Shown: in pieces, positions 6,417-32,000 of the stretch | Layout of the letters: each line of letters opens with the position of its first letter | How positions within the stretch are numbered: position 1 is the first letter of the stretch | NCBI GenBank assembly: GCA_023898485.1 | Contig: CP060225.1 | Span: forward strand, 513,704 to 545,703 | Reading direction: 5' to 3' | DNA from: Candidatus Peribacteria bacterium | GTDB taxonomy: Bacteria; Patescibacteriota; Gracilibacteria; Absconditabacterales; Absconditicoccaceae | DNA length: 32,000 nt | Translations under genes and position numbers: made by a program | Notes under the pieces: model-generated | What the model saw: the letters and a program-made list of their open reading frames with translations, nothing else | What the model was told of the DNA's origin: nothing | Databases searched by the model: none

Positions 6417-7319
6417 TTATGCGTAGCCGACATTTGCGCTAATGGTCGCGTAATAGTCTTGTGTCTCTTGTGGACGAGTATTGAGTGGTTCTTTAGCATA
6501 TCATGGGCCATTATTGTATGCTATCAATGCTTGCTGCATATTGAACGTATCGCCACTTTTATATCCATATTCTGCCAAATACATAGCAGCAGCTTCTGCT
6601 GCATACACAGGATTTTTTGCAAGTGACTCTGAGTCAGGTGCCGCGACCTTTTTGTATCGATCTTTTGCTGTATCAGGCATAAATTGAAACAATCACTGTG
6701 CGCCCGCACTGCTTCCCAATGGTCTGTCTCCTTCTTTTAAGACTCATTTGCTCTCCTTTTTACACACCTCTACCAAAGTATTGATTGGCAATTTGTGTTT
6801 CCGTTCTAATCGATGTAAGTAAGAGATGTATGCGGTGTTCTTGAGGTATCCATCCTTGGGTAATTGTGACCAAGAGGTATGCTTCAAATCAATAATACTC
6901 TCTTTATCATATTGGGGCTCTTTCAGCTGTATTTTATCGGTTTCATATTTTAGTCATTTGATATCCTCTGCAGTTTTAGTTATATCATCTGATTCGACTG
7001 ATTGAGGATCTTGTAAAAATGATTTGATTATTACTGATTTTAGGACTCTCATGACAGGATTGGTTGGTTCCTCTCTCAGCCACTCAGCAATCGTACCGAC
7101 TGCGACATCTCATACCAGTGGAGATTGTATCATTTTATCATATATCTCTCTTCATCTATCATTCAGTCAGCTAGTGTCACCTTTTTCTAATGCAGATGCA
7201 AGCTGTTCATACTTACTATCTGTTTTTGTTTCCTTGGCTTCTATATTTTGTTTCTGATCATCATCCTGATCGGGCCCCTTGTTGAGGTTATTGTCTGCGA
7301 TATCACTTTTATCTACCAT
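6417..7319 (-). CDS. SLT-domain lytic transglycosylase with a long acidic N-terminal region (VirB1-like role possible)
   Basis: I translated codon by codon from ATG 7317-7319 to TAA 6417-6419 (301 codons) and found no TAA/TAG. The catalytic region is KKESKGVLKEGDRPLGSSAGAQGLFQFMPDTAKDRY...AYNNGPGY, matching ES...AGAxGLMQxMPxTA...YNxG. The Gly of GLFQFMP is TGA 6693-6695. Confidence 0.8.
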
Positions 7320-7441
7320 GGATCGATATAATAATTAAAACTCATTATATTTATTATAATACTTATGCTCCCTAAAGTCAAAAAATCCCCTCTGAAATGG
7401 AGAAGATTCTTTCTAATCTTATACAAACTTACACACTATAT

Positions 7442-8646: not shown

Positions 8647-8737
8647 TCACTGAATTCTATTTCAAAATAGCACACTAGCATAAATCTCTTAATAGGAGTA
8701 TAATCTATAGGATTTATACTCTATGTACTAGGTTATT

Positions 8738-9700
8738 ATGAAACACTTAAGCTATGAGGAATGTGTACATATCGAAGTATTGGTAGGTGAAGGTTATTCT
8801 CATAGACGTATTGGAACAGTCCTATGAAGAAGTAATGGAAGTATTTCTCGTGAAATAAGAGAATATAGTATGAATGGAATCTATATTGCATCACTTGCAT
8901 ACCTCAAAAGAACCATAAAGAGACAGTTATGCAATAGTCTTATGCGCTGTAGAATAGACGAGTGAAGTGATCTAGCACAGTATACAATAGACAAGATGAA
9001 GCTCTATTGGTCACCAGAACAAATAGCAGGAAGGTGGAAGAAAGAGACATGAGAAACTATTTCAAAGGACACTATCTATAGGTACATTAAGATACATCAT
9101 CCAAAGTTAGTACCTCAATATTTCAGAAGAAAATGAAGAAAATATAAGTATAACAAAGAACCCTGTGATTATATCTATAACCGTATTAGTATTCATGAGA
9201 GGCCAGACATAGTGAAGAATAAAGAAAGAATAGGCGATCGAGAATGAGATACAGTTATAGGAAAATGAAGAACATGAGGTTTTGTGACTCTCAATGAAAG
9301 GAAGAGTGGTTATGTGCTAGCTGGGGTCATTAAGAAAAAGAAAGCGCAAGAGGTGTTATATGTGATGGAAAAGTTATTCAATGAGGTATCTGAAGGTATA
9401 AGAAAAACCCTCACCTTAGACAACGGCAGAGAGTTTTCTGAGCATTATATGTTGAAGCCATTGTGCGGGTTAGACACATACTTTGCAGACCCATGATCAC
9501 CCTGACAAAGATGAGCAAATGAGAATACAAATGGCTTACTGAGACAATTCTATCCAAAACGTATGAGTCTTGCAAATATTCAGCAAGAACACCTTGAATA
9601 CTATGTAAGTCTCCTTAATAATAGACCAAGAAAAAGGTTAGGTTACACTACTCCGATAGAGGTTCTTGCTGAATATAATAAGTGTGTGGATTTGAATTAG
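8738..9700 (+). CDS. IS30-family DDE transposase, 320 aa
   Basis: ATG 8738 to TAG 9698-9700 (321 codons) is in frame with track ORF 9284-9496. It has an N-terminal HTH (SYEECVHIEVLVGEGYSHRRIG), then GDREGDTVIG, TLTLDNGREFSEH and [28 protein letters not shown]...LNNRPRKRLGYTTPIEV. These match the IS30 catalytic core (WEGD...DNGxEF...PWQRGxNENxNGLLRQ...RPRKxLG). Ten TGA codons are read through. Confidence 0.85.
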
Positions 9701-10276: not shown

Positions 10277-13200
10277 TTATCCTATAATCTCTGCTTTGCC
10301 AGCATCGATGAGGTCTTTGACTTTTTTGTATTTGACTTCGTACTCTACTTTGCCATCAGGATAGCGGACGGTGATTTTGTCATTGGGGCGGAGTTTAGAT
10401 CACTTGGTTTGTAGTTCGTGGTCAGTGGTCAGTGGTTCGCTGCCCGTCTCAATCACTTCTACTCCGTCTTCGTCAGATTGGATTTGCTTCGTTGTTTTGG
10501 GTGTAGTTGTTGGTGCTGAAGGAGACGAAGCTGCTGCCGCTTTGATAGAGTCGATAATACCTGACTGTCTGGCTTGGATTCTTGCCTGACGAGCATTGAT
10601 TTGGTCATTCACATTATCCCAGTCGATCTGTGCTGTGCGAGTCACGATATCGCGGTCGATATTGGCCTGGAGCTGAAGGAAGAGTTCGTATGCCTCCCTT
10701 TTGTACTGGACGAGTGGATCGATCTGTGCATAGGACATGAGACCGACCTTGTCGCGAACATGCTGCATTACATCGATATGATCTATCCAATAGTGGTCGA
10801 TAATGTTCAAATTATTGGTCGTGATCATCTTGTTGACAATGACAGCAGGAATATCGTGCTGGACATCGAGTCTCTGCTCCAAATGATCGGTCAAAACATG
10901 CATGAGTTCGTTGGATGAACCAGGGACGCTGTCGAGGGTCAGGTTAAATTCTTTCTGAAGGGTAACAAGAAGATCTTCATCAGACACATCCAACTGTTCT
11001 TGCTCGGTCACAAAGCCAGCAATGACGTCTGGTATGAGTGTACGGATATCCTGGATGACAGGAGAGTCTGCCAAATTGATAGTTGCCTTATCATCGGTTT
11101 GTTTTTCTGCTTCAGAAAGTGCAACAAGGAGTTTATTTCTTCTATCATACATTCTTTGGCGCTGTTTGTCGACGACGGTATCATAGTCGAAGAGGTGCTT
11201 ACGAGAAGAGAAATGTCGTGCCTCCATCTGCTTCTGTGCGCGGATGATAGAGCCACCAAATTGTTTATTCGTCAGTTCCATCTGCTCGAGCTGATCTCTA
11301 GACATGAGTGTGGCTGCGAGGGATTGGATTTTTTCTCCGCCGACTTTGCGCATGATCTCATCATCGAGTGCGACGAAAAACATCGATACACCCGCATCTC
11401 CTTGACGACCGGCACGACCACGGAGCTGGTTATCGATACGACGAGAGTCATGTTTTTCGGTAGCGAGGATCATCAGACCATAATGAATATTTTGCTCGAC
11501 AAGATCACCTGTCGCTCATGCTGGTTTGATAGTGAGTTCAAGATAGGTGTCTGATGGTTTGGATTTCTTCGTATTGAAGGTGAAGGTCCACTCTGCTCCC
11601 TCATGGGTCAGTGTGTGATTGCGCTCTGCATCACGTACCTCATCGAGTGATAACCCGAACTGTGCAACCAACGCGTCAAAGGTCAGTTCCGCTTCTTCGC
11701 GAGAGAAGATATCGAGTGACACAGGGTGAGCATTTTGGAGCTGAGTGCTGATTCGCTTAGCATAATTAGTAGCGATCTGTATATTAAGATCGTCGGGGAG
11801 TTTGATATCCGTACCACGACCGGCCATATTGGTCGCGACGACGACCGATCCCAACTTACCTGCACCTGCGACGATATTCGCTTCTTGTTCGTGAAATTTG
11901 GCATTGAGGACAGAGTGTTTGATCGCTACTTGAGTCAGTAGTGATGAGACGAACTCCGAGGTGTGAATCGATGAGGTACCAACCAAAATCGGCTGACCCA
12001 TACGATGTGCAAACTGGATAGTGTCCATGACGGCTTTCCATTTGGCGTTTTGGGAGAAGTATACTTTGTCTTCGTAGTCGACACGGATGACTGGCTTGTT
12101 GGTCCTGATCGCAAGGACACCCAACTCATAGATAGACTCAAATTCTTCACCTTCGGTCGTTGCGGTACCCGTCATACCAGCAAGTTTGTCGTATTGTTTG
12201 AAAAAGTTTTGGTAGGTAATGGTTGCGATGGTTTTGGATTCACGCTGGATAGCTACTCACTCTTTGGCTTCGATCGCTTGGTGGAGTCACTGGTTGAATC
12301 TACGACCTGGCATTGCACGTCCGGTATTGGTATCGATGATGACTACTTCGCCATTAGATACGATATATTCTTTGTCTGCGCGATAGACTGCTTGGGCTTT
12401 GATAGCGTTTTCGATGTGGTGTATCTCATCGAAGCCGAGATCTCTGTAGAGATTTTCTACTCACAAAATACTCTCAAGTTTGGCGATACCCTCGGAGGTA
12501 AGGGTAGCATTTTTGGTCTTTTCGTCGATGTAGTAGTCTCCATGTGGTTCGGATTCTGATTCATCTTTTTTCTCATCATTGAGTAGATCATGGAGAAATC
12601 ATTTTGAAACTTTTTTGCGTCCAGGAGCTGCAGTGAGGTTGCGGATGATCTTGGCGTAGTAAGTGTATTTGTCCGTAGACTCCTCTGCTGGCTGCGAGAT
12701 AATCAGCGGTGTACGTGCTTCGTCGATCAGGATAGAGTCTATTTCGTCCACAATGGCAAAATATAATGGTCTCCAGAGCAGCACTCTCTGTTCCATCGTC
12801 TTGGCGATATTGTCGCGGAGATAGTCAAATCCAAGCTCTGAGTTTTCGACGTAGGTGATGTCACATTCATACTCTTGGCGGCGAGCTTTGCCTTGAGGAG
12901 TGCTCTTGGTCACGGAGCCAATCGTCATCCCGAGAAATTGATAGAGATGTCCGATCCATGCAGCATCACGAGATGCGAGATAATCGTTCACCGTGACGAG
13001 ATGGACACCCTTACCGGTGAGAGCATTCAGATAGAGTGGTAATGCTGCTACTAGTGTTTTACCTTCACCGGTTTTCATCTCAGCGATTGCATCACGATGG
13101 AGTACGATACCTCCCAGTAACTGGACATCATACGGGATCATGTTCCAGGTCTGGAGTGTGCCTTTGACATCGTATTCGTTGCCGACCATGAGTGCACATG

Positions 13201-13423
13201 CACGTTTGACGAGTGCAAATGCTTCGGGCAAGATGTCGTCAAGATGTTCGCCTGACGCGACTCTGGATTTGAGTTCCGCGGTTTTGGTCTGGACTGCTTC
13301 TTGATCATAGTCAGCGTAGTCATGCTCGTAGATCTCATTGATCTGGCGGATAATGGGGTCGATTTTTTTGAGTTCTCTTTCGTTGTAATTTCCTGATATT
13401 TTATCAGCTAATCGGTTGATCAT
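10277..13423 (-). CDS. secA: Preprotein translocase ATPase SecA (1,048 aa)
   Basis: Track ORFs 12599-13423, 11516-12175 and 10400-11473 are in one frame. The 12176-12598 gap translates as ...[17 protein letters not shown]...[60 protein letters not shown] without TAA/TAG. GLHQ and KEGV use TGA 12287-12289 and 12257-12259. The true stop is TAA 10277-10279. The C-terminal tail lacks the Zn-binding CxCxSGxKxKxCH motif. Confidence 0.95.
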
Positions 13424-13505
13424 GTGTGAAATTTGCAGAGTGAAAAAATGAAAAAATAGTGTCGCCTAGACTACTCTTTTGGAATAATGATTGCAAGAGC
13501 AAGGC

Positions 13506-18676: not shown

Positions 18677-19441
18677 TTACTCAATTACTCTATATCCATC
18701 ACTTGTCACTTCATATAGAGCGCCATTACCTGTATCAATACGCAAACTTAATCGCATTATATTCCAGCTAGCAGAAATCTCCTGATAATATGCACCTATA
18801 TTAGGAATTTCTATAATTTTACAAACTCCTGCACTTTCTGGAGTGAAGAATACCAACAAAGTATCATCATTGGCTGTTGGTGTACCATTTTCTTGATAAC
18901 CAAAAGTCACATATTCTACAAATTTACCATCTAGCACCATATTATCTTTGTCCCATGACTGTACGATTCAATCTTGGTTAACAAAATAATACATAGTATC
19001 ATCAGACAGGAACATGCTATTTCCGCAGAAAAGGTCTTTTTCTATAGTCATCGTAGACAGATTGATTGAACTGATTTTTTTATCTTCCATTCGTAGATCA
19101 TTATCATCTTGAAGCCATCTGTAAGATAGTGATCATGAAATATCCAAAGGAAAAATTGTGTCGTTAGCGGTAACTCATGATAATATAACCAATGACATAT
19201 CACCAGGATTAAAACGATTCTCATCTCGATATATATCTATGCCATCAGTATAATATCATGCATATCCACTAAATAATGGATGAATATCATGTCTCTGACT
19301 CTCATTTATGTCATTACTACCAGTCATAACGCTAGATCAAGTAGTGCTATCACTAGAATCATCTATCATAACGGATCCACAACCAGCTAGTATTACTATC
19401 AAAAGTGCACCGCTCAACCCAAATCAAAGAAGTTTTTTCAT
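18677..19441 (-). CDS. Hypothetical lipoprotein, 254 aa
   Basis: ATG 19439-19441 is in frame with track ORF 18677-18940 through several TGA codons. MKKLLGFGLSGALLIVILAGCGS contains a lipobox (LAGC). Its stop, TAA 18677-18679, abuts the ABC-F stop with no spacer. Confidence 0.6.
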
Positions 19442-23832: not shown

Positions 23833-24246
23833 CTATATGCAATGTGATATAATAGAAGGCATCTCAACAACCCACACACAGTAATTGATCTGGCTATTTT
23901 TTGTTAGCTCATGGAAGATGATATCATCTAGTCATCTCACTCCATAGACATACTCTTTGGAGAAGGTCTGTCCACCATTACTGTCGTAGGTTTGATGCTC
24001 TTGAGCAATATTCTGTCCATCATAGACATAGGTGATGAGTCTGGATTCATTACTTCATTGGTAGACTCTCTTACTCGTTCTACATCATAGTGGATCGTAG
24101 CTATATTCGATCTTGTAGGGGTCTTGGTTTCCTTCGTGGTTATTTTTGAGATTCGCTTCGATGAGTCTATTCTGGTAGTCGTAGGTAAATGTTCGCTTGT
24201 CGTTTTCGATGAGGCTGTTGCTCGTTTCACACAATAGAGAGTCATA
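23833..24246 (-). pseudogene. Truncated rhs core remnant (no start codon; homologous to part of the main rhs)
   Basis: The frame opens right after the TAA of the upstream gene. It reads ...NDKRTFTYDYQNRLIEANLKNNHEGNQDPYKIEYSYDPLGCRTSKRVYQGSNESRLITYVYDGQNIAQEHQTYDSNGGQTFSKEYVYGVRGLDDIIFHELTK, then diverges and stops at TAG 23833-23835. Nucleotides 23905-24213 align closely with 27329-27658 of the main gene. Confidence 0.7.
23905..24213. repeat. Rhs-core repeat B, downstream copy (pairs with 27329-27658)
   Basis: Long stretches are identical by eye, for example CTCTTACTCGTTCTAC.TCATAGTGGATC.TAGCTATATTCGATCTTGTAGGGGTCTTG. There is one indel: the main copy carries extra sequence encoding DNPAEDGAGHP. 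Confidence 0.75.
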
Positions 24247-24633
24247 TTAATAGAGCTCTACCTTATACCAATTAGATCACATATCTTTAATAATAAACTT
24301 GTATTCTTCGCTATTAATGTCGTTAATACTATACATATATCATGCTCATTGTAATTTATTGTACCATCATGATTTGAGAAATACAATATCCCCATTATTC
24401 ATTCTTATGATATTGTGTATATTATTTTTTTTCATAAAAGAAATACAATCAGCACATATATCACTCTTTTTATCAATTCATGTAATTGATGGATTTCAAT
24501 TCATATATACAACCATTGCTTCATAATCTCATATACTGTTTTTGAATCCATCAATAAGTTTTATATACTTAAAGAAAACAATAGATATAATACATAAGAC
24601 TGCAGCTATAATGATGATTTTTTTTATTCTCAT
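24247..24633 (-). CDS. Small N-terminally membrane-anchored protein, 128 aa; candidate immunity protein for the orphan toxin
   Basis: ATG 24631-24633 to TAA 24247-24249 contains seven TGA codons. Translation is MRIKKIIIIAAVLCIISIVFFKYIKLIDGFKNSIGDYEAMVVYMNGNPSITGIDKKSDICADCISF.... It lies 33 nt downstream of the type-44-like toxin ORF, on the same strand. Confidence 0.5.
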
Positions 24634-24666: not shown

Positions 24667-25582
24667 TTACTGTAAATGATCGCGTAGCTTCTCTTCCGTT
24701 ACAATAAGTCCATATTTTTGATACATGGCATATCACAATTCTACTGTATTTCGATCACTAACTTCATCATTAAATTTATCAGAATATCTGTTACTACACT
24801 CATCCATAGTTAACACCGCACATCTTAATGTCATTTTTGCTGTGAACACATTAGCACTTCAATTAATTAACTCATTCATTGGCATACCTCCAGCTGCCCC
24901 GACATACCCGTAAAGCAGATTACCAAACCAATCATACGAATACTCATTATCTGCTATTAATACAGAAAATGCTTGTAGTGTTGCTGGAGAATATTCATAT
25001 CTCTTATAGTCTCGATCTCATCGTGGGCGAACTTTATTAAAGAAGTATAGATATTTATCAATAGATAGTTTATCTAATTTTATTTGAAGAGTAGAAATTT
25101 TGAATCTTTATTAATTCATTCTCAAAAAAAGATCAATCTCATCGATTTAATTCATTTTGTAAATTTACAATACTTCTTTTTATTGCAGATTCTTGAAGGG
25201 CATAATTCTGCATTAGAGCTCAATTATTTAACAGCTTATTGAGTGCATCTATTGTCATATCTGGAAGTACTTCTTTACTACTCAACCCCCATGGATCCAC
25301 ATAATTCACACTATTGTTCCTCACATAGCTATACGGATTCGGCCCATCGATATACAGCAGTGGATCACTGGAGATGAATCTTCCGAGTCTCGGAGAGTAA
25401 TATCTCGCTCTATAATAGTACAGATCAAGTTCTGCTTCGTATTCTCTAGCGATGTAGAGTCTGTAGTTTTCTAGTCATGGTTTGGATTCTTGCATGGATG
25501 TGTTTCCATTCTGCTGATTACCACTTGGATTACTAGTATTTGTGTTACTAGCGCATTGTTGAAATTTTGATATATAGTACAT
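24667..25582 (-). pseudogene. Orphan rhs C-terminal module: core tail, DPWGL, linker, then a type-44-like toxin domain in the +1 frame
   Basis: Frame 1 runs from ATG 25580-25582 to TAA 25070-25072. It reads MYYISKFQQCASNTNTSNPSGNQQNGNTSMQESKPGLENYRLYIAREYEAELDLYYYRARYYSPRLGRFISSDPLLYIDGPNPYSYVRNNSVNYVDPWGLSSKEV.... The +1 frame is open from 25107 to TAA 24667-24669. It reads ...VRPRGDRDYKRYEY...YDWFGNLLYGYVGAAGGMPMNELINGSANV...NDEVSDRNTVELGYAMYQKYG and has no start of its own. Confidence 0.65.
25286..25533. repeat. Rhs-core repeat A, orphan copy (pairs with 26921-27168)
   Basis: About 250 bp encoding NPSGNQQNGNTSMQESKPGLENYRLY.AREYEAELDLYYYRARYYSPRLGRFISSDPLLYIDGPNPYSYVRNNSVNY. The nucleotide sequences differ at only scattered positions by eye. 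Confidence 0.85.
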
Positions 25583-25589
25583 ACACTAT

Positions 25590-26261
25590 CTATGCACTAA
25601 AACAATCTTTCATATCAATTATACCTATATAAGATATATTATTAACGATATAGAATATAAAAACCGTATCCTGTATGTAGTATATTGTAGAGACATGATC
25701 TCTAATGAATCATGCATATTCCATATCCTCAGGAGAAGCTAAGGTGCTATCGTCATTAATATTGTTATGTTTATAAAAATCTATCTTTCATTGGTTGATA
25801 TCGATTATATCCTGTACAAACTGATAGTTATTGTCATAGTCATAAGATGCAATTACATCTGGTTTATAATCATCACTGTCTCCCAACCAACATATATCTT
25901 GCCATTGCAAATCATTATTAGTTTCTAATTGGTCCACAATATCTAGATTAAAATCAAATCATGATCAGTAGTATACTGCACCAAAAAACCCGTTATAATA
26001 ATATGTCTCATATGCATCCTCAAATCATGGGAAAAATGCGATATATCAATCAGCTCCAGGATTGTAAAAGATCCCTAAGCTATCCTTCACAAAATGATCC
26101 ATCATAGCAAAATCATTACTATTAAGTGCAGATAGTAGTCAAATAATATCATCATGCTGACTATCTATGTCTATATCTCTTCAACTATTGTCTAGAATAC
26201 TGCATCAAGATAATAACATACAACACAACACCCCAAAGTATCTTAGAAATATTACTTTCAT
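25590..26261 (-). CDS. Lipoprotein, 223 aa; candidate immunity protein for the amidase-tipped Rhs toxin
   Basis: ATG 26259-26261 lies 24 nt downstream of the rhs stop, and the ORF ends at TAG 25590-25592. MKVIFLRYFGVLCCMLLSGCSILDNSG has a lipobox LSGC whose Gly is TGA 26205-26207. The mature part is acidic and aromatic-rich (FFPGFEDAYETYYYNGFFGAVYYGSGFDFNLD) and matches no family I recognise. The ORF is invisible in the standard code. Confidence 0.6.
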
Positions 26262-26284
26262 ATCTAGATCGTTAATTATAAAAA

Positions 26285-26920
26285 CTACTTTTGATTCTCT
26301 CTTACGTATTGTATTACATCATCTGCAAACGATGTTGCTTCTCAAATATTTTTACAACTTACCCATGGGTGTGCGTATATATCATCAGCACTTAAACCAT
26401 ATGTATTTGCAACCGATAATGTTAATTCTTTTAAAGACTGTAGTTGATCACTAGTTAGTGGCTCACCAGTCATTCATACATTCTCTATTCAGATGGTGTT
26501 TTGGTTATTATTAGCATACTGATTTACTTCATCTGTTTGATGCCAGTCATCTACTCATCAGTTATAAACATATTCCCTCAAGGTATTTACACAGTATTCA
26601 TTTGCTCCATTGTGTCGAGCTATCTGTGTATCAGGATCAAGTGTCCCATATATTTGACCATCAGTATCTATAATATAGTGAGCACTTGCAGTACCTTTGG
26701 GTCGCGTATAATCTAATGTAGATTCTAAGGTTGTTGCATTGGTTTGGTGTAGAATAATAGCTTGTATTCATTCTCATTGACGATCTCGATGTCAATAATT
26801 ATATTTTTCAGCATATGACCAATCAATATCAATTCATCACAAATTATCAATTCGTTCATTAATACTATTTGTAAATGTGTTACTCTTAATGTTATCATAT
26901 AGTATAGCACTACTCTCTAA
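26285..26920 (-). other. Rhs C-terminal toxin tip: Amidase_2 (N-acetylmuramoyl-L-alanine amidase / PGRP)-like domain
   Basis: After DAWGL the protein reads ...GIQAIILHQTNATTLESTLDYTRPKGTASAHYIIDTDGQIYGTLDPDTQIARHNGANEY...NTIGIENVGMTGEPLTSDQLQSLKELTLSVANTYGLSADDIYAHPWVSCKNIGE. This follows the Amidase_2 order: IxIHxT (His ligand), AHYxIDxDGxIxQ, AxHxG, NxIGIE, TxxQxxxLxxL, then IxxH....C (His/Cys ligands). Confidence 0.6.
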
Positions 26921-29900
26921 CCCCCAAGCATCCATATAATTCACACTATTATTCCTCACGTAGCTATATGGATTCGGTCCATCTATATATAGTAGTGGAT
27001 CACTGGAGATGAATCTTCCCAGTCTCGGAGAGTAGTATCTCGCCCTATAATAGTAAAGATCAAGTTCTGCTTCATATTCTCTAGCGGTGTAGAGTCTGTA
27101 GTTTTCTAGTCATGGTTTGGATTCTTGCATGGATGTGTTTCCATTCTGCTGATTACCACTTGGATTACCATTCGTATTTCATGAGTTTTTACTTCATCAG
27201 AATATTATATTACCTCGGGTATCGTATCTGTAGGATTCGACTATCTTACCTTCTTGGTTAGAGAGAGCTATGATAGATCACTGATGATTTTGATAATAGT
27301 AGTACTGATTCACCTGATCATTTCTGGTGAGTTCATGGAAGACGATATCGTCTAGTCCTCTGGCTCAGTAGACATACTCTTTGGTGAAGGTTTGTCCATC
27401 ATTGCTCTCATAGGTTCGATGTTCTTGAGCAATGTTCTGTCCATCATAGACATAGGTGATGAGTCTACTTTCATTGCTTCATTGGTAGACTCTCTTACTC
27501 GTTCTACGTCATAGTGGATCATAGCTATATTCGATCTTGTAGGGGTCTTGATTTCATGGATGGCCTGCCCCGTCTTCAGCGGGGTTATCTTTCAGATTCG
27601 CTTTGATGAGTCTATTCTGATAGTCATAGGTAAATGTTCGCTTGTCGTTTTCGATAAGGTTGCCATTCTGATCGTATGCAAAACTAGTGGCTATTGCTCC
27701 TGTTGCACCTTCTGTCCCTATTGCTACTTCTTCATATTGGTTTCTGTTATTGATGTTGTAAGTGTTCTGATACTCATCTGTCACTGCACCGACACCATTA
27801 TAGTCTGGACTGATGGTGAGCCAGTCATCTTGGACTCCACTACTACTTCATCCACTTTGTCAATTTGATCCATTTCATCCTGTATCATCTCCCGTTCCTC
27901 GTCCATAGTGATTTCCATTCCCTCCATTACCTTGGTTTTGTTGGTTTCCATTGCCATTATTGTTTCCATTTGATCCACTTGGTCCATTTCAGCTATTTCA
28001 TCCACTTTGTCCATTATTCCCATTATCTGTATTGGGTACGACTGATTGCGTCGTATTTCACTGGGTATTGCTATTAGCTTTCTGATGGAGTCGATCGAGG
28101 ATAGTGATACCTGCGATGTCATTGTATTCGGTGACTCTGTTGCCTAGTCCGTCGTAGGTATAGGTCTGTACTCGATGGTTGAGGTCGGTAGATCATTGTT
28201 CGCCATTGGATCAATTGATGAGATCACCAATATTGTAGGCAGTGGTCGTGATCTGATAGATATCATCATAGTAGTACTGATCGTGACCATCAGTGAGGAT
28301 GTTATTCATCAGATCATAGGTGTAGGTGTAGCCTATCTCGGTGGTAGGTCAGCCAGTGAAGCTATCGTGACTGAGGGAGGTAGGTCTTAGGAGATCGTCA
28401 TAGATTCGTGAAGTGGTAGTATCATTGGCTCTGGTGAGAGAGGTGAGGGTGGCGCTGTCATAGAGGTAGTCGATGATACTCTCTCCTTCTCGCTGGATAT
28501 CTGTCATGCGTCCGAGGATGTCCCACTGGTTCGTAATCGTCTTGCCTGATGGGTAGATGGTGTCTTGGAGATCAGCGGTATCAGCGTAGTAGCTATGGGA
28601 GATGGTCTGAGTAGGGAGTCACTGCTCGGTGAGTCGTAAGTTAGACTGTGATTCAGAGGTGAGCCTATCCAGACTATCATACGAGAAAGTAAGATCATGT
28701 CCGAGGTCATCGGTGATCGATGTGACCCTCCCGAGTTCGTCATAGGTGTAGTGCTCCTGAGTGACTCATCCGACTCATGGACCCAGATCAATATCCTTCT
28801 GTGTGATGCGATGCATGTCATCATAAGTATATGCTACGGTCGACCCATTGGGATCGGTAGATGAGATGATATTGCTGTCTGCATCGTAGGTGTAGGTAGT
28901 GATTGCACCATCGGGGAGTGCTTGCTGTATGAGTCTATCATAGTCGTCGTAAGTCCATGTGGTGATGTTGCCATTATCATCGGTGAGAGAGATGAGATTA
29001 CTGTGGCGATCATAGGTTTTGGTAGTGACGATAGCTTGTGATCCATCATGTTGCGTTACTTGTGTGACATTGCCCCAGTAGTCATATTCGTACTCGGTAG
29101 TATTACCCTCTGCGTCCGTCATCTGGGTGATCTGACCCAGTCCATTGTAGACGTAGGAGAATGTCTGTCCCATGTGATTGGTCGTCTGGATGAGACGATG
29201 ATCGTCATCATAGGTATTGGCTATTCGGAGCATCTTACCTTCTGCTGTGGTGATGGTTTGTTTGGTGATGAGGTTGTCATCATCATATTCATAGGTCAGT
29301 ATTTTGCCGACTGCGTCGGTGATGGTCTCTGGTCTGGCAAATGCATCATAGGTCATCGTAGTCACCGCTCCTCTCTGATCGGTCATGGCGATGATCTTCC
29401 CATGTTGATCATAGGTATAGGACATGGAGAGAGTTTCGCTGGTGTTATCTACATTGACTTTGTCTACCTGTGTCAGCTGTCATCGTGCATCATAGGTGTA
29501 GTTTCGTTGCTGTAATAGTATGTAGTTAGTGGTTTGTGGTGTGTAGTTGCTTACTATCATCCTTGTTATCATGTTGCGATTATCATCGTACTCGAAGAAG
29601 GTGGTGATATCCTCAGCAGTGGTGATAGTGGCGATCATATCATCGAGTGTTCGAGTCATGGTGGTCTCATGTCCTTCTGGATCAGTGATGGAGATCAGTC
29701 TTCCTTTGGTGTCATAGTCATAGCTGTACTTGATCAACTGTCCATCTACTGTTGCAGATTTACTGGTGAGTCTCTGGAGAGAGTCATAGGTATAGTTTCG
29801 CGCGAGTCATTCAGGAAGGATGATGGATGAGAGGTTGTCATTGGGATCATACTCCATGATAGTGGTAGCTATAGTGTCTGCATCTTGGTCAGTAGAGATG

Positions 29901-32000
29901 GATGTGAGATTGTCGAGGATGTCGTAATCGAACGTAGTGTCGACATGAGCACCATCCACATCCTGGATCATACTGGTGAGGTTATGATTGTCATCATAGC
30001 TGTATGATAAGGTGATGGCTTCTGGAGTAGTGAGCCCGGTGAGTCTATCCCACTCATCATGAGTGAGTGTGGTGGTGTGACCCTCTCCATCAGTGATGGT
30101 ACGAGGATTACCAAAATCATCATACGAGATAGTCTGTGTGATCTGACTACCATCAGTACCAATCTGGGTAATAGTGAGAGGGAGATCGTATTCGTTATAG
30201 GTGTAAGTTATCTGCTGACCATAAGGGAGAGTGATGGTATCTGGTTTGTCAGAGTCAGTGTAGGAGATAGTGGTGGTACGAGCAGGGAGAGAGCTGTCTG
30301 CTGGCTGGATGGTGTACGAAGTGAGATTGTTGTGATCATCGTAGGTGTAGCTATGGTGAATATGATGGCTGTCTACTTTTTCTGTCAGGAGATTATTGCT
30401 ATCATAAGTGAAGGTTTCGGTGAGAGATTCATCACCATCGGAGATAGTGGAAGAGGTGATATTGCCTTGGTCGTCGTAAGTGTAAGACTGTGCAGAATCA
30501 TCAGGATAGGTAATCTGCGATACCTGATGTCATATACCATCATATTCATAATGATACATGATGCCTGACTGATCAGTCAGAGACAATAAACGGTAATATG
30601 CATCATACACATGAGTTGCTGTCTGACCGCGTCTATCAGTGATATCTACCTGTAGATTACCATCAGCAAGATCGGTATATGTATAAGAAAGTATCTGATC
30701 ACCATAGGCCTGTTGGATAACACGGTCATGAGCATCATATGTGTTGTCCACATAGATATTGTCTTTGTTATCATCAATAGTTGCTAGCTGATGCGAAAGA
30801 AGATGGTTGACTACACGCTCACCTGTCACGCTATCATAACGTACATCACTATTATAAGTGAGATTGATGGTCTGATTTTGATTTTCATGATTGACCACAA
30901 ATGATGCAATATCTCCCAATACGCCATCACTGTCCTGATCACCGTAATAGGTAATATCTACTGAGCGACCATTGGCATGAGCAATGTGTGTGAGTCTCTT
31001 CTCAGGATATGATGGGTTGAGCTCTTCGTATGAGAAAATGATATTGCGTCCATGAGGATCAGTGATAGTGGTGAGATATCCCTCATCATCGTAGCTAAGA
31101 GCATAATCAGCATTATGTATGGTATAGCGAACCATTCTCCATGGCACTATATCTTCGCCCTGAGATGCAAATACTTGATAGGCGTTGGCACCTACAATAT
31201 GTAAGATGTATTCATCTCCTGATTGGGAAATCTCCATATCAGACGCATTAGTCCATTTGTCTCCCTCTTGGACGAATTTATACACATGGAGGTATCCATC
31301 ATAATAGGTGATAGTAGACCCATCGATAGTGAGATATTGATTCCAATTATGATCTCGATTTCGTCACATGATACCGTTGTATGATGCTTGATTATCATAG
31401 GTGACTACCAATTGAAAATCTTCACCCTCCGTCGGCTCATCCATGAGTGTATTGGACCAGACCATTGCACCTCTTGCAAGATCGACAGGATCACCACTAT
31501 TCTGTGTCACCTCTGTTTGAGCTTGTATGCCTCCATAGTATTCTACTATACTATTGGTATAATCAACCTGCGGATTATAGATATAAGAAGTCAGATTGAT
31601 ATTATTACTCATCTGTTCATGCTGTATCACAGGTTCTTCTTCGGTGGGAAGATTGATGCTACCATCAGGATTAGTAGTAGGATCCCATGCAGCAGGACGA
31701 GGACAATAATTATTATCTACAATAATTTTTAACTTATAGTTTCTCACCTTCACCACACAACCAGGATCAATATATTGTGATGCTGTCATTTCATTATGCG
31801 TACATTGTCCATCCCATCGTGCTATTCCTCATGGACATTGAGAAACATCAGATGTGGGACATACAAATCATGCATAATCACCATCTGTCGGCTGATACCA
31901 GTCTGCCAAATCTTCTGCAGTAGCATAGGGATCATCAAGCACTGACGCATAGACAGGACATATTTCTAGATAGGTAGGTCACTCTTCATAATATGCTCAT
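26285..32000 (-). CDS. Rhs/YD-repeat polymorphic toxin, 5'-partial (>1,900 aa in window), with C-terminal Amidase_2/PGRP-like domain
   Basis: Track ORFs 31364-31789, 30530-31285, 29480-29737, 28775-29425 and 27554-27784 are all in the frame of stop TAG 26285-26287. I read the gaps 31286-31363, 29738-30529, 29426-29479, 27785-28774 and 26921-27553 codon by codon and they contain TGA but no TAA/TAG. The Rhs shell entry motif GDPVDLARGAMVWSNTLMD is near 31440-31495. Dozens of YD repeats follow (YTYDxxGR/N...). The core ends ...LYYYRARYYSPRLGRFISSDPLLYIDGPNPYSYVRNNSVNYMDAWGL. The frame is still open at 32000. Confidence 0.9.
26921..27168. repeat. Rhs-core repeat A, main-gene copy (pairs with 25286-25533)
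   Basis: See the 25286-25533 feature. The copies diverge exactly at the DPWGL/DAWGL boundary on one side and at NPSGN on the other. Confidence 0.85.
27329..27658. repeat. Rhs-core repeat B, main-gene copy (pairs with 23905-24213)
   Basis: See the 23905-24213 feature. Confidence 0.75.
27836..28069 (-). repeat. Gly/Asn/Ser/Gln low-complexity insert inside the rhs coding frame
   Basis: The rhs frame reads NTQGNTTQSVVPNTDNGNNGQSGGNSGNGPSGSNGNNNGNGNQQNQGNGGNGNHYGRGTGDDTGGNGSNGQSGGSSSGVQDDW. Six TGA codons sit among GGA/GGT/GGC/GGG glycine codons. Confidence 0.8.

Follow-up and report, generated by a model that had tools for sequence, protein, structure and literature searches.

The closest described systems are the Rhs polymorphic toxins, exemplified by enterobacterial rhs loci in which a main gene is combined with arrays of orphan modules (PMC3482391). 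The locus described here shares with them a YD-repeat shell bearing a DUF6531 plug, a DPxGL-type core end (here DAWGL, and DPWGL in the orphan) followed by a variable tip, a small ORF on the same strand directly downstream, and orphan tips that carry a homology arm for exchange. Unlike those loci, it belongs to a host of the CPR type that uses genetic code 25, with TGA supplying 56–78% of the glycine codons in its cassette genes, and its immunity candidate is a predicted lipoprotein. Among polymorphic toxins, those acting at the cell surface are matched by immunity proteins that are secreted or transmembrane, and a lipoprotein is found in one immunity family only, Imm65 (PMC3482391).

Type VI secretion system (T6SS) pairs such as Tae/Tai, Tse1–Tsi1, Tse3–Tsi3 and VgrG2b–PA0261/Tpe1–Tpi1 likewise set a wall-degrading toxin against an immunity protein exported to the compartment of the wall. 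The immunity proteins for T6SS toxins that act in the periplasm are periplasmic or lipoproteins, and some of those directed against peptidoglycan effectors are lipoproteins (PMC6899460, PMC3792639). However, in those pairs the T6SS of a diderm bacterium delivers an NlpC/P60-type amidase, a muramidase or a metallopeptidase, whereas here an Amidase_2/PGRP-type domain is carried on an Rhs shell and the source organism is probably monoderm-like. In concept, the locus also resembles the Bdellovibrio arrangement in which a wall-degrading weapon is accompanied by a dedicated protector of the cell's own wall, the ankyrin protein Bd3460 (cited in PMC8080830). Bd3460, which is soluble and periplasmic and made of ankyrin repeats, is directed against DD-endopeptidases and has no sequence relation to the protein studied here. 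A wall-degrading polymorphic toxin with envelope-exposed immunity is a kind of system already known; the present case is an ORFan, and its host is unusual.

The target gene lies directly downstream of the rhs gene in the window, by which we mean the whole 32,000-nt stretch analysed (Table 1). In a minus-strand translation it runs from ATG 26261-26259 through 223 sense codons to TAG 25592-25590, with nine in-frame TGAs (codons 19, 27, 41, 72, 79, 99, 101, 158 and 184), the first of them at 26205-26207. The original prediction had described an ORF of 223 codons starting 24 nt after the rhs stop that is cut short in the standard code and is therefore absent from the ORF track. This description held: the gap is 23 nt, the ATG being the 24th base past the rhs stop, table 11 closes the ORF after 18 codons, no minus-strand ORF of at least 60 aa is listed there under that table, and the N-terminal and internal peptides that had been quoted are both found in the translation. 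No Shine–Dalgarno-like motif was found in the 23-nt spacer, and likewise none for other genes of the window; promoter and terminator scans around the spacer gave no signal above background. We propose that the ORF is a real code-25 gene for a prelipoprotein, held in one cassette with the Amidase_2 tip of the Rhs protein, and that on balance its product is most likely the cognate immunity protein of that tip.

Table 1. Features of the rhs locus, of the window around it and of sister contigs, with base composition and share of glycine codons read from TGA.
Feature	Position	Strand	GC	TGA share of Gly codons	Description
rhs gene, 3' part	26285..31999	-			at least 1904 codons, 39 in-frame TGAs; stop TAG 26285-26287; N-terminus beyond window
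Rhs core			0.43	21%	
DAWGL core-end motif	26918..26932	-			Rhs aa 1690-1694; boundary between core and variable tip
Variable C-terminal tip	26288..26917	-	0.33	62%	210 aa, pI 4.4; Amidase_2 match ~26366-26770
Spacer, rhs stop to target start	26262..26284	-			23 nt
Target gene	25590..26261	-	0.30	56%	223 codons + TAG; 9 TGA=Gly; predicted prelipoprotein, candidate cognate immunity protein
Predicted signal peptide and lipobox	26202..26261	-			MKVIFLRYFGVLCCMLLS-G(TGA 26205-26207)-C20(TGC 26202-26204)
Orphan-1 homology arm	25284..25533	-			94% to rhs 26919-27168; DPWGL at 25283-25297
Orphan-1 module	24667..25585	-			Rhs core end ORF 25070..25585, then Ntox44 24667..25107 in other frame
imm2	24247..24633	-	0.24	78%	128 aa, after Ntox44 tip; N-terminal TM anchor (MRIKKIIIIAAVLCIISIVFF)
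Orphan-2	23833..24246	-			truncated Rhs core fragment, 87-90% to rhs 27308-27662
Second predicted lipoprotein	18677..19441	-			MKKLLGFGLSGALLIVILAGC...; canonical ILAGC lipobox; one TGA=Gly within signal peptide
IS30-family transposase	8732-9700	+			10 in-frame TGAs
ORF after L040 tip	L040 1030-1515				N-terminal TM anchor
ORF after L044 tip	L044 2073-2672				N-terminal TM anchor
Housekeeping genes			0.44-0.48	0-19%	
SecA, SecF, ABC-F			0.46-0.48	0-10%	
Toxin-tip and candidate immunity cassette genes			0.24-0.33	56-78%	

The genome uses code 25, in which TGA encodes glycine, and the evidence for this is strong and independent of the target gene. Under table 11 the ORFs of the window are heavily fragmented. 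When TGA is read as sense, the DNA contained in ORFs of at least 100 codons rises from 28 to 74 kb, including an ORF of 1905 codons; recoding TAG or TAA gave no such gain. In SecA (10277..13465, minus strand), the three TGAs that can be aligned to solved SecA structures all fall on invariant glycines, one of them in an FFGI block. We also aligned the Rhs protein with 13 Rhs loci from standard-code organisms. Glycine was the commonest residue opposite its TGAs (61/300, against a background of 8.5%), while Trp occurred 7 times; at the conserved YD-repeat positions 731, 840, 1497 and 1574 the residue opposite TGA was predominantly Gly, in 11, 13, 8 and 6 cases, respectively. Code 4, in which TGA encodes Trp, is ruled out by the SecA and Rhs evidence. 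Code 25 is a hallmark of Gracilibacteria and Absconditabacteria (PMC11452946).

Compared with an Enterococcus IS30 transposase, the TGAs of the IS30-family transposase stand opposite G, G, A, A, A, S, P, K, L/T and, in one case, W. This single exception is the conserved Trp of an SPWQRG motif; it could be a change of TGG to TGA that replaced W by G, or a vestige of a different decoding history, and it stays a curiosity.

Across the window, the share of glycine codons read from TGA is inverse to local GC content. The Rhs tip and the target gene have a low GC content and a high TGA share in common, and both differ in this from the Rhs core. The heavy use of TGA in the cassette genes indicates that the cassettes evolved inside code-25 genomes and are not recent imports.

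Within this code, the target ORF has the properties of a coding sequence. When the surrounding 2 kb was shuffled 2000 times, a run of at least 223 codons free of TAA and TAG, at 30% GC, turned up twice. The coding likelihood, from a codon-usage model trained on low-GC genes elsewhere in the window, was +0.27 bits/codon in the target frame, whereas the remaining five frames scored from -0.23 to -0.61. As in other genes of the window, GC1 exceeds GC2 and GC3. The mature part of the product would comprise 203 aa with a pI of 4.05, a net charge of -30, 15.8% Asp and 36 aromatic residues, and we found neither internal repeats nor a paralogue. A non-functional ORF, either open by chance or a decaying remnant beside the toxin tip, could be proposed on the grounds that the protein is without a homologue and that the neighbouring orphan module is frameshifted, so that decay does occur at this locus. 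However, the rarity of such long frames in shuffled DNA, the single positive coding frame among six, the GC1 bias, an intact signal peptide and the tight, operon-like spacing all argue against it, and we regard it as very improbable. We take the target ORF to be a real gene, and its host to be a code-25 bacterium of the Gracilibacteria/Absconditabacteria type.

With TGA read as glycine, the N-terminus of the target protein is MKVIFLRYFGVLCCMLLSGC, and it agrees with every clause of PROSITE PS51257. This pattern describes a lipoprotein signal by a positive n-region, a hydrophobic h-region and the lipobox [LVI][ASTVI][GAS]-C, whose Cys must lie at residue 15-35. In the target, Lys or Arg occurs in the first seven residues, the required six uncharged residues are present, and L-S-G-C places the Cys at residue 20. 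The n-region contains K2 and R7, the h-region is YFGVLCCMLL (10 aa), a polar acidic linker follows Cys20, and residues 8-23 have a Kyte–Doolittle hydropathy of about 2.1. The claim that the lipobox depends on reading TGA as glycine proved correct, since the pattern matches with Gly (LSG-C20) and fails to match with Trp. The glycine encoded by TGA is nonetheless no sign of special biology, because 56% of the glycine codons of the gene are TGA; it is a consequence of code 25 and is relevant to annotation, not to mechanism. The lipobox is there in the translation; lipidation and localisation are predicted from it. Neither Lgt nor LspA is encoded in the window, and we found no literature on these enzymes in CPR bacteria.

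How specific is such a signal? Among 340 Met starts taken from all six frames of the window, 5 match PS51257, three of the five lying in non-genes, and 1.0% of shuffles of the target N-terminus match it as well (p ~0.01). With a match in about 1% of random N-termini, the lipobox might be fortuitous, in which case the protein would be exported or membrane-anchored without being lipidated, by a plain signal peptide or signal anchor or from another start; the putative immunity ORFs nearby do carry plain TM anchors. An in-frame TTG (26345-26343, 28 codons upstream and inside rhs) and Met15 are conceivable as alternative starts. Yet the tripartite signal is canonical throughout, ATG 26261 is the first ATG of the frame and lies outside rhs without overlapping it, and a second gene of the window, for which no Pfam family was found, has a textbook ILAGC lipobox. 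That second gene indicates that the lineage uses lipoboxes. A non-lipidated product is thus clearly unlikely in our assessment, and we proceed with the target as a predicted prelipoprotein.

The upstream gene encodes a typical Rhs shell, with 12 RHS repeats (Pfam RHS_repeat, E=1.4e-90), a DUF6531 plug and an Rhs core domain (TIGR03696, 66.5 bits). The tip had been called an amidase, and profile searches agree, with Amidase_2 (PF01510) scoring 57 bits against a cutoff of 26 (E=3.4e-15). Like other members of this family (AmpD, AmpDh2, T7 lysozyme, PGRPs), the tip passes the gathering score and has two His motifs and the catalytic Glu motif; alignment with the periplasmic amidase AmpDh2 (4bj4) showed that LHQT, SAHY, RHNG, GIE and YAH motifs are kept, among them both of the first two His motifs for Zn binding as well as the catalytic GIE. 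It differs from the family in being a polymorphic toxin tip, in its very low identity to solved members (E=0.02) and in the region of the third Zn ligand, where HPWVSCKNIGE departs from the K-x-D/C consensus and falls outside the Pfam alignment, with Cys +5 and Glu +10 as candidate ligands. Since this third ligand is not aligned to the consensus and the Pfam match ends at model position 120/131, amidase activity is likely rather than assured. We classify the tip, from its sequence, as a divergent Amidase_2 domain of N-acetylmuramoyl-L-alanine amidase type. A search with the tip alone found no relatives.

Three further observations concern the Rhs protein and its surroundings. A low-complexity insert rich in Gly, Asn, Ser and Gln (NGNNGQSGGNSGNGPSGSNGNNNGNGNQQNQGNGGNG...) lies within the repeat region (~27830-28072, minus strand; Rhs aa ~1310-1390); it contains many TGA codons and is left unaligned by other Rhs proteins. 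In the main rhs gene the core-end motif reads DAWGL, against the canonical DPWGL of the orphan and of the sister contigs, a Pro-to-Ala change in a motif tied to autoproteolytic release of the tip. Elsewhere in the window, two minus-strand genes, one for a T4SS-pilin-like membrane protein (PF18895, 4286..5221) and the other for an SLT lytic transglycosylase (6417..7334), may be a remnant of a type IV secretion or conjugation system.

The boundaries of the cassette are marked by a 250-nt direct repeat of 94% identity, in which rhs 26919-27168 recurs at 25284-25533. Homology between the main gene and the orphan stops exactly at DAWGL, and the orphan-1 arm closes the cassette 56 nt past the target stop. 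Since the repeat boundary is the last DAWGL codon, the unique DNA between the two copies consists of the tip and the target ORF together with two short spacers. The tip and the target ORF therefore form one swappable Rhs toxin/immunity recombination cassette. This architecture, with unique DNA that holds the tip and the target alone and with their common composition, lends additional support to an immunity role.

The downstream orphan modules repeat the layout of a tip followed by a small ORF. The toxin domain of orphan-1 is Ntox44 (Pfam, E=7.7e-12), but the module is split: the core end and about 70 further aa run to a TAA (25070), and the Ntox44 frame overlaps this ORF at 25070-25107. Either orphan-1 is an orphan toxin silenced by a frameshift, or the split stems from an assembly indel near T7/A4 runs.

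Two sister contigs, L040 (NCBI) and L044 (JGI), also use code 25. The tip of L044 is Ntox44 (31 bits), and that of L040 is related to it (E=5e-5). The ORFs that follow these Ntox44-type tips (imm2 and those of L040 and L044) all start with a TM anchor (3/3) and show no mutual similarity. At the locus and in the sister contigs, each tip is followed by one unrelated small ORF, a robust pattern that supports the immunity label. The target differs from these three ORFs in having a short h-region and a lipobox in place of a long TM anchor.

The original prediction had held that a cell-wall toxin and an extracytoplasmic lipoprotein reinforce each other as calls. One half of this stands, as an envelope location does fit a cell-wall toxin; the other does not, as the ORFs adjoining Ntox44 in this lineage are membrane-anchored too, so that an envelope signal is not specific to cell-wall toxins and does not discriminate between toxin types. 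We found no established activity for Ntox44. The shared TM anchors suggest either that Ntox44 acts at the envelope or that the immunity proteins of this lineage are generally membrane-anchored.

Searches for relatives of the target protein were uniformly negative. The statement that it matches no immunity family was confirmed at E<=0.1 in Pfam and NCBIfam, and there was no match in PADLOC, PHROGs or PDB sequences. Its code-25 translation had no match among 5.8 billion proteins (word-seeded search), in GTDB representative genomes or in JGI metagenomes, and no sequence similarity to the Tai or Tsi families was found. These negatives are meaningful, since sister-lineage Rhs proteins do sit in the database (as the code-4 translations P0008 and P0005) and a code-4 relative of the target would still be detectable. 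An exhaustive phmmer search, for which the query was a 56-aa TGA-free piece of the target, returned the target's own code-11 fragment and three repeat-motif matches. The latter (FG-GAP-like DFNGDGKPD..YDYGNND; HEAT YWLGDSD) are similar at the level of the motif only and were rejected as relatives. Exact look-up with code-11 fragments from the tip and from the core gave nothing, and scans with the Rhs core end returned 38 distant standard-code Rhs loci, none of which (0/38) had a similar tip or ORF. By these comparisons the target protein is an ORFan, without a relative in protein families, the PDB, genomes or metagenomes. As no homologue was found, there is no conserved pairing of tip and ORF, a point against the immunity reading.

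It is the position of the gene that points to an immunity role; toxin binding and protection are what we infer from it. An envelope lipoprotein in this position could also be something else: an accessory that anchors, presents or releases the toxin, on the model of the proposed role of the MafA lipoprotein with MafB toxins or of colicin lysis lipoproteins, or an unrelated hitch-hiker of the cassette. Colicin lysis lipoproteins are about 50 aa long, against 223 aa for the target. The absence of homology to any immunity family is compatible with such an accessory, as is the lack of charge complementarity between the tip and the target, which is ruled out by both being acidic (pI 4.4 and 4.05, respectively). 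On the example of MafA, lipoproteins linked to toxins may serve as anchoring partners instead of conferring immunity, but partners of the MafA type are encoded upstream, conserved and not polymorphic (PMC3482391), whereas the target is encoded downstream, within a variable low-GC cassette whose composition it shares with the tip. Moreover, every other tip of the locus and of the sister contigs has one unrelated small ORF after it, as is usual for immunity genes. We consider an accessory or hitch-hiking lipoprotein rather unlikely and retain cognate immunity as the preferred reading.

The envelope in which such an immunity protein would act can be sketched from related organisms. Vampirococcus has a Gram-positive-type wall (PMC8080830), and Gracilibacteria, which are code-25 CPR bacteria, encode complete peptidoglycan synthesis (PMC11452946). 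We hypothesize that the prelipoprotein, with residues 1-19 as a Sec/SPase-II signal ending in the LSGC lipobox, would be exported by Sec and lipidated at Cys20, and would then be anchored on the membrane's outer leaflet, under a wall of the Gram-positive type; the membrane meant is the cytoplasmic one. Its tethered part, a very acidic and aromatic-rich domain of 203 aa, would adjoin the cell wall. There it could bind the amidase tip that an incoming Rhs shell releases and so keep it from cleaving the MurNAc–L-Ala bond. The amidase might be delivered by sibling cells or leak from the producer itself.

A bolder version of the immunity reading can be formulated, which we offer as speculation and think quite unlikely to hold. 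Here the mature domain would be a new fold and family that inhibits PGRP/Amidase_2 amidases, an epibiotic or predatory code-25 CPR bacterium would turn the Rhs-amidase against the wall of its host, and the lipoprotein would protect the predator's own wall, of the Gram-positive type, as in Bdellovibrio self-protection; from the membrane-anchored partners of the Ntox44 tips, action of Ntox44 at the envelope would then be suggested as well. Unlike in Bdellovibrio, there is no evidence at the locus for the use of this Rhs protein in predation.

The choice of genetic code matters for the annotation of such pairs. Under the standard code the target gene vanishes, and its lone trace in the public protein collection is a 49-aa code-11 fragment with a GTG start (P0001). 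A code-4 reading turns the lipobox into LSWC and forfeits the localisation call. Public Rhs fragments from sister lineages (P0008, from L040, and P0005, from L045) are translated in code 4, with Trp at every TGA (e.g. MQESKPWLENY). Because toxin loci of code-25 organisms are systematically mistranslated, surveys of toxins and immunity proteins are likely to under-count these lineages.

If confirmed, the tip and the target would constitute the first toxin/immunity pair for an Rhs protein with an Amidase_2 tip, and the target would provide a new inhibitor scaffold for PGRP-type amidases. Confirmation would also mean that code-25 CPR bacteria, uncultured episymbionts or predators, carry complete, swappable Rhs arsenals with protection located in the envelope.
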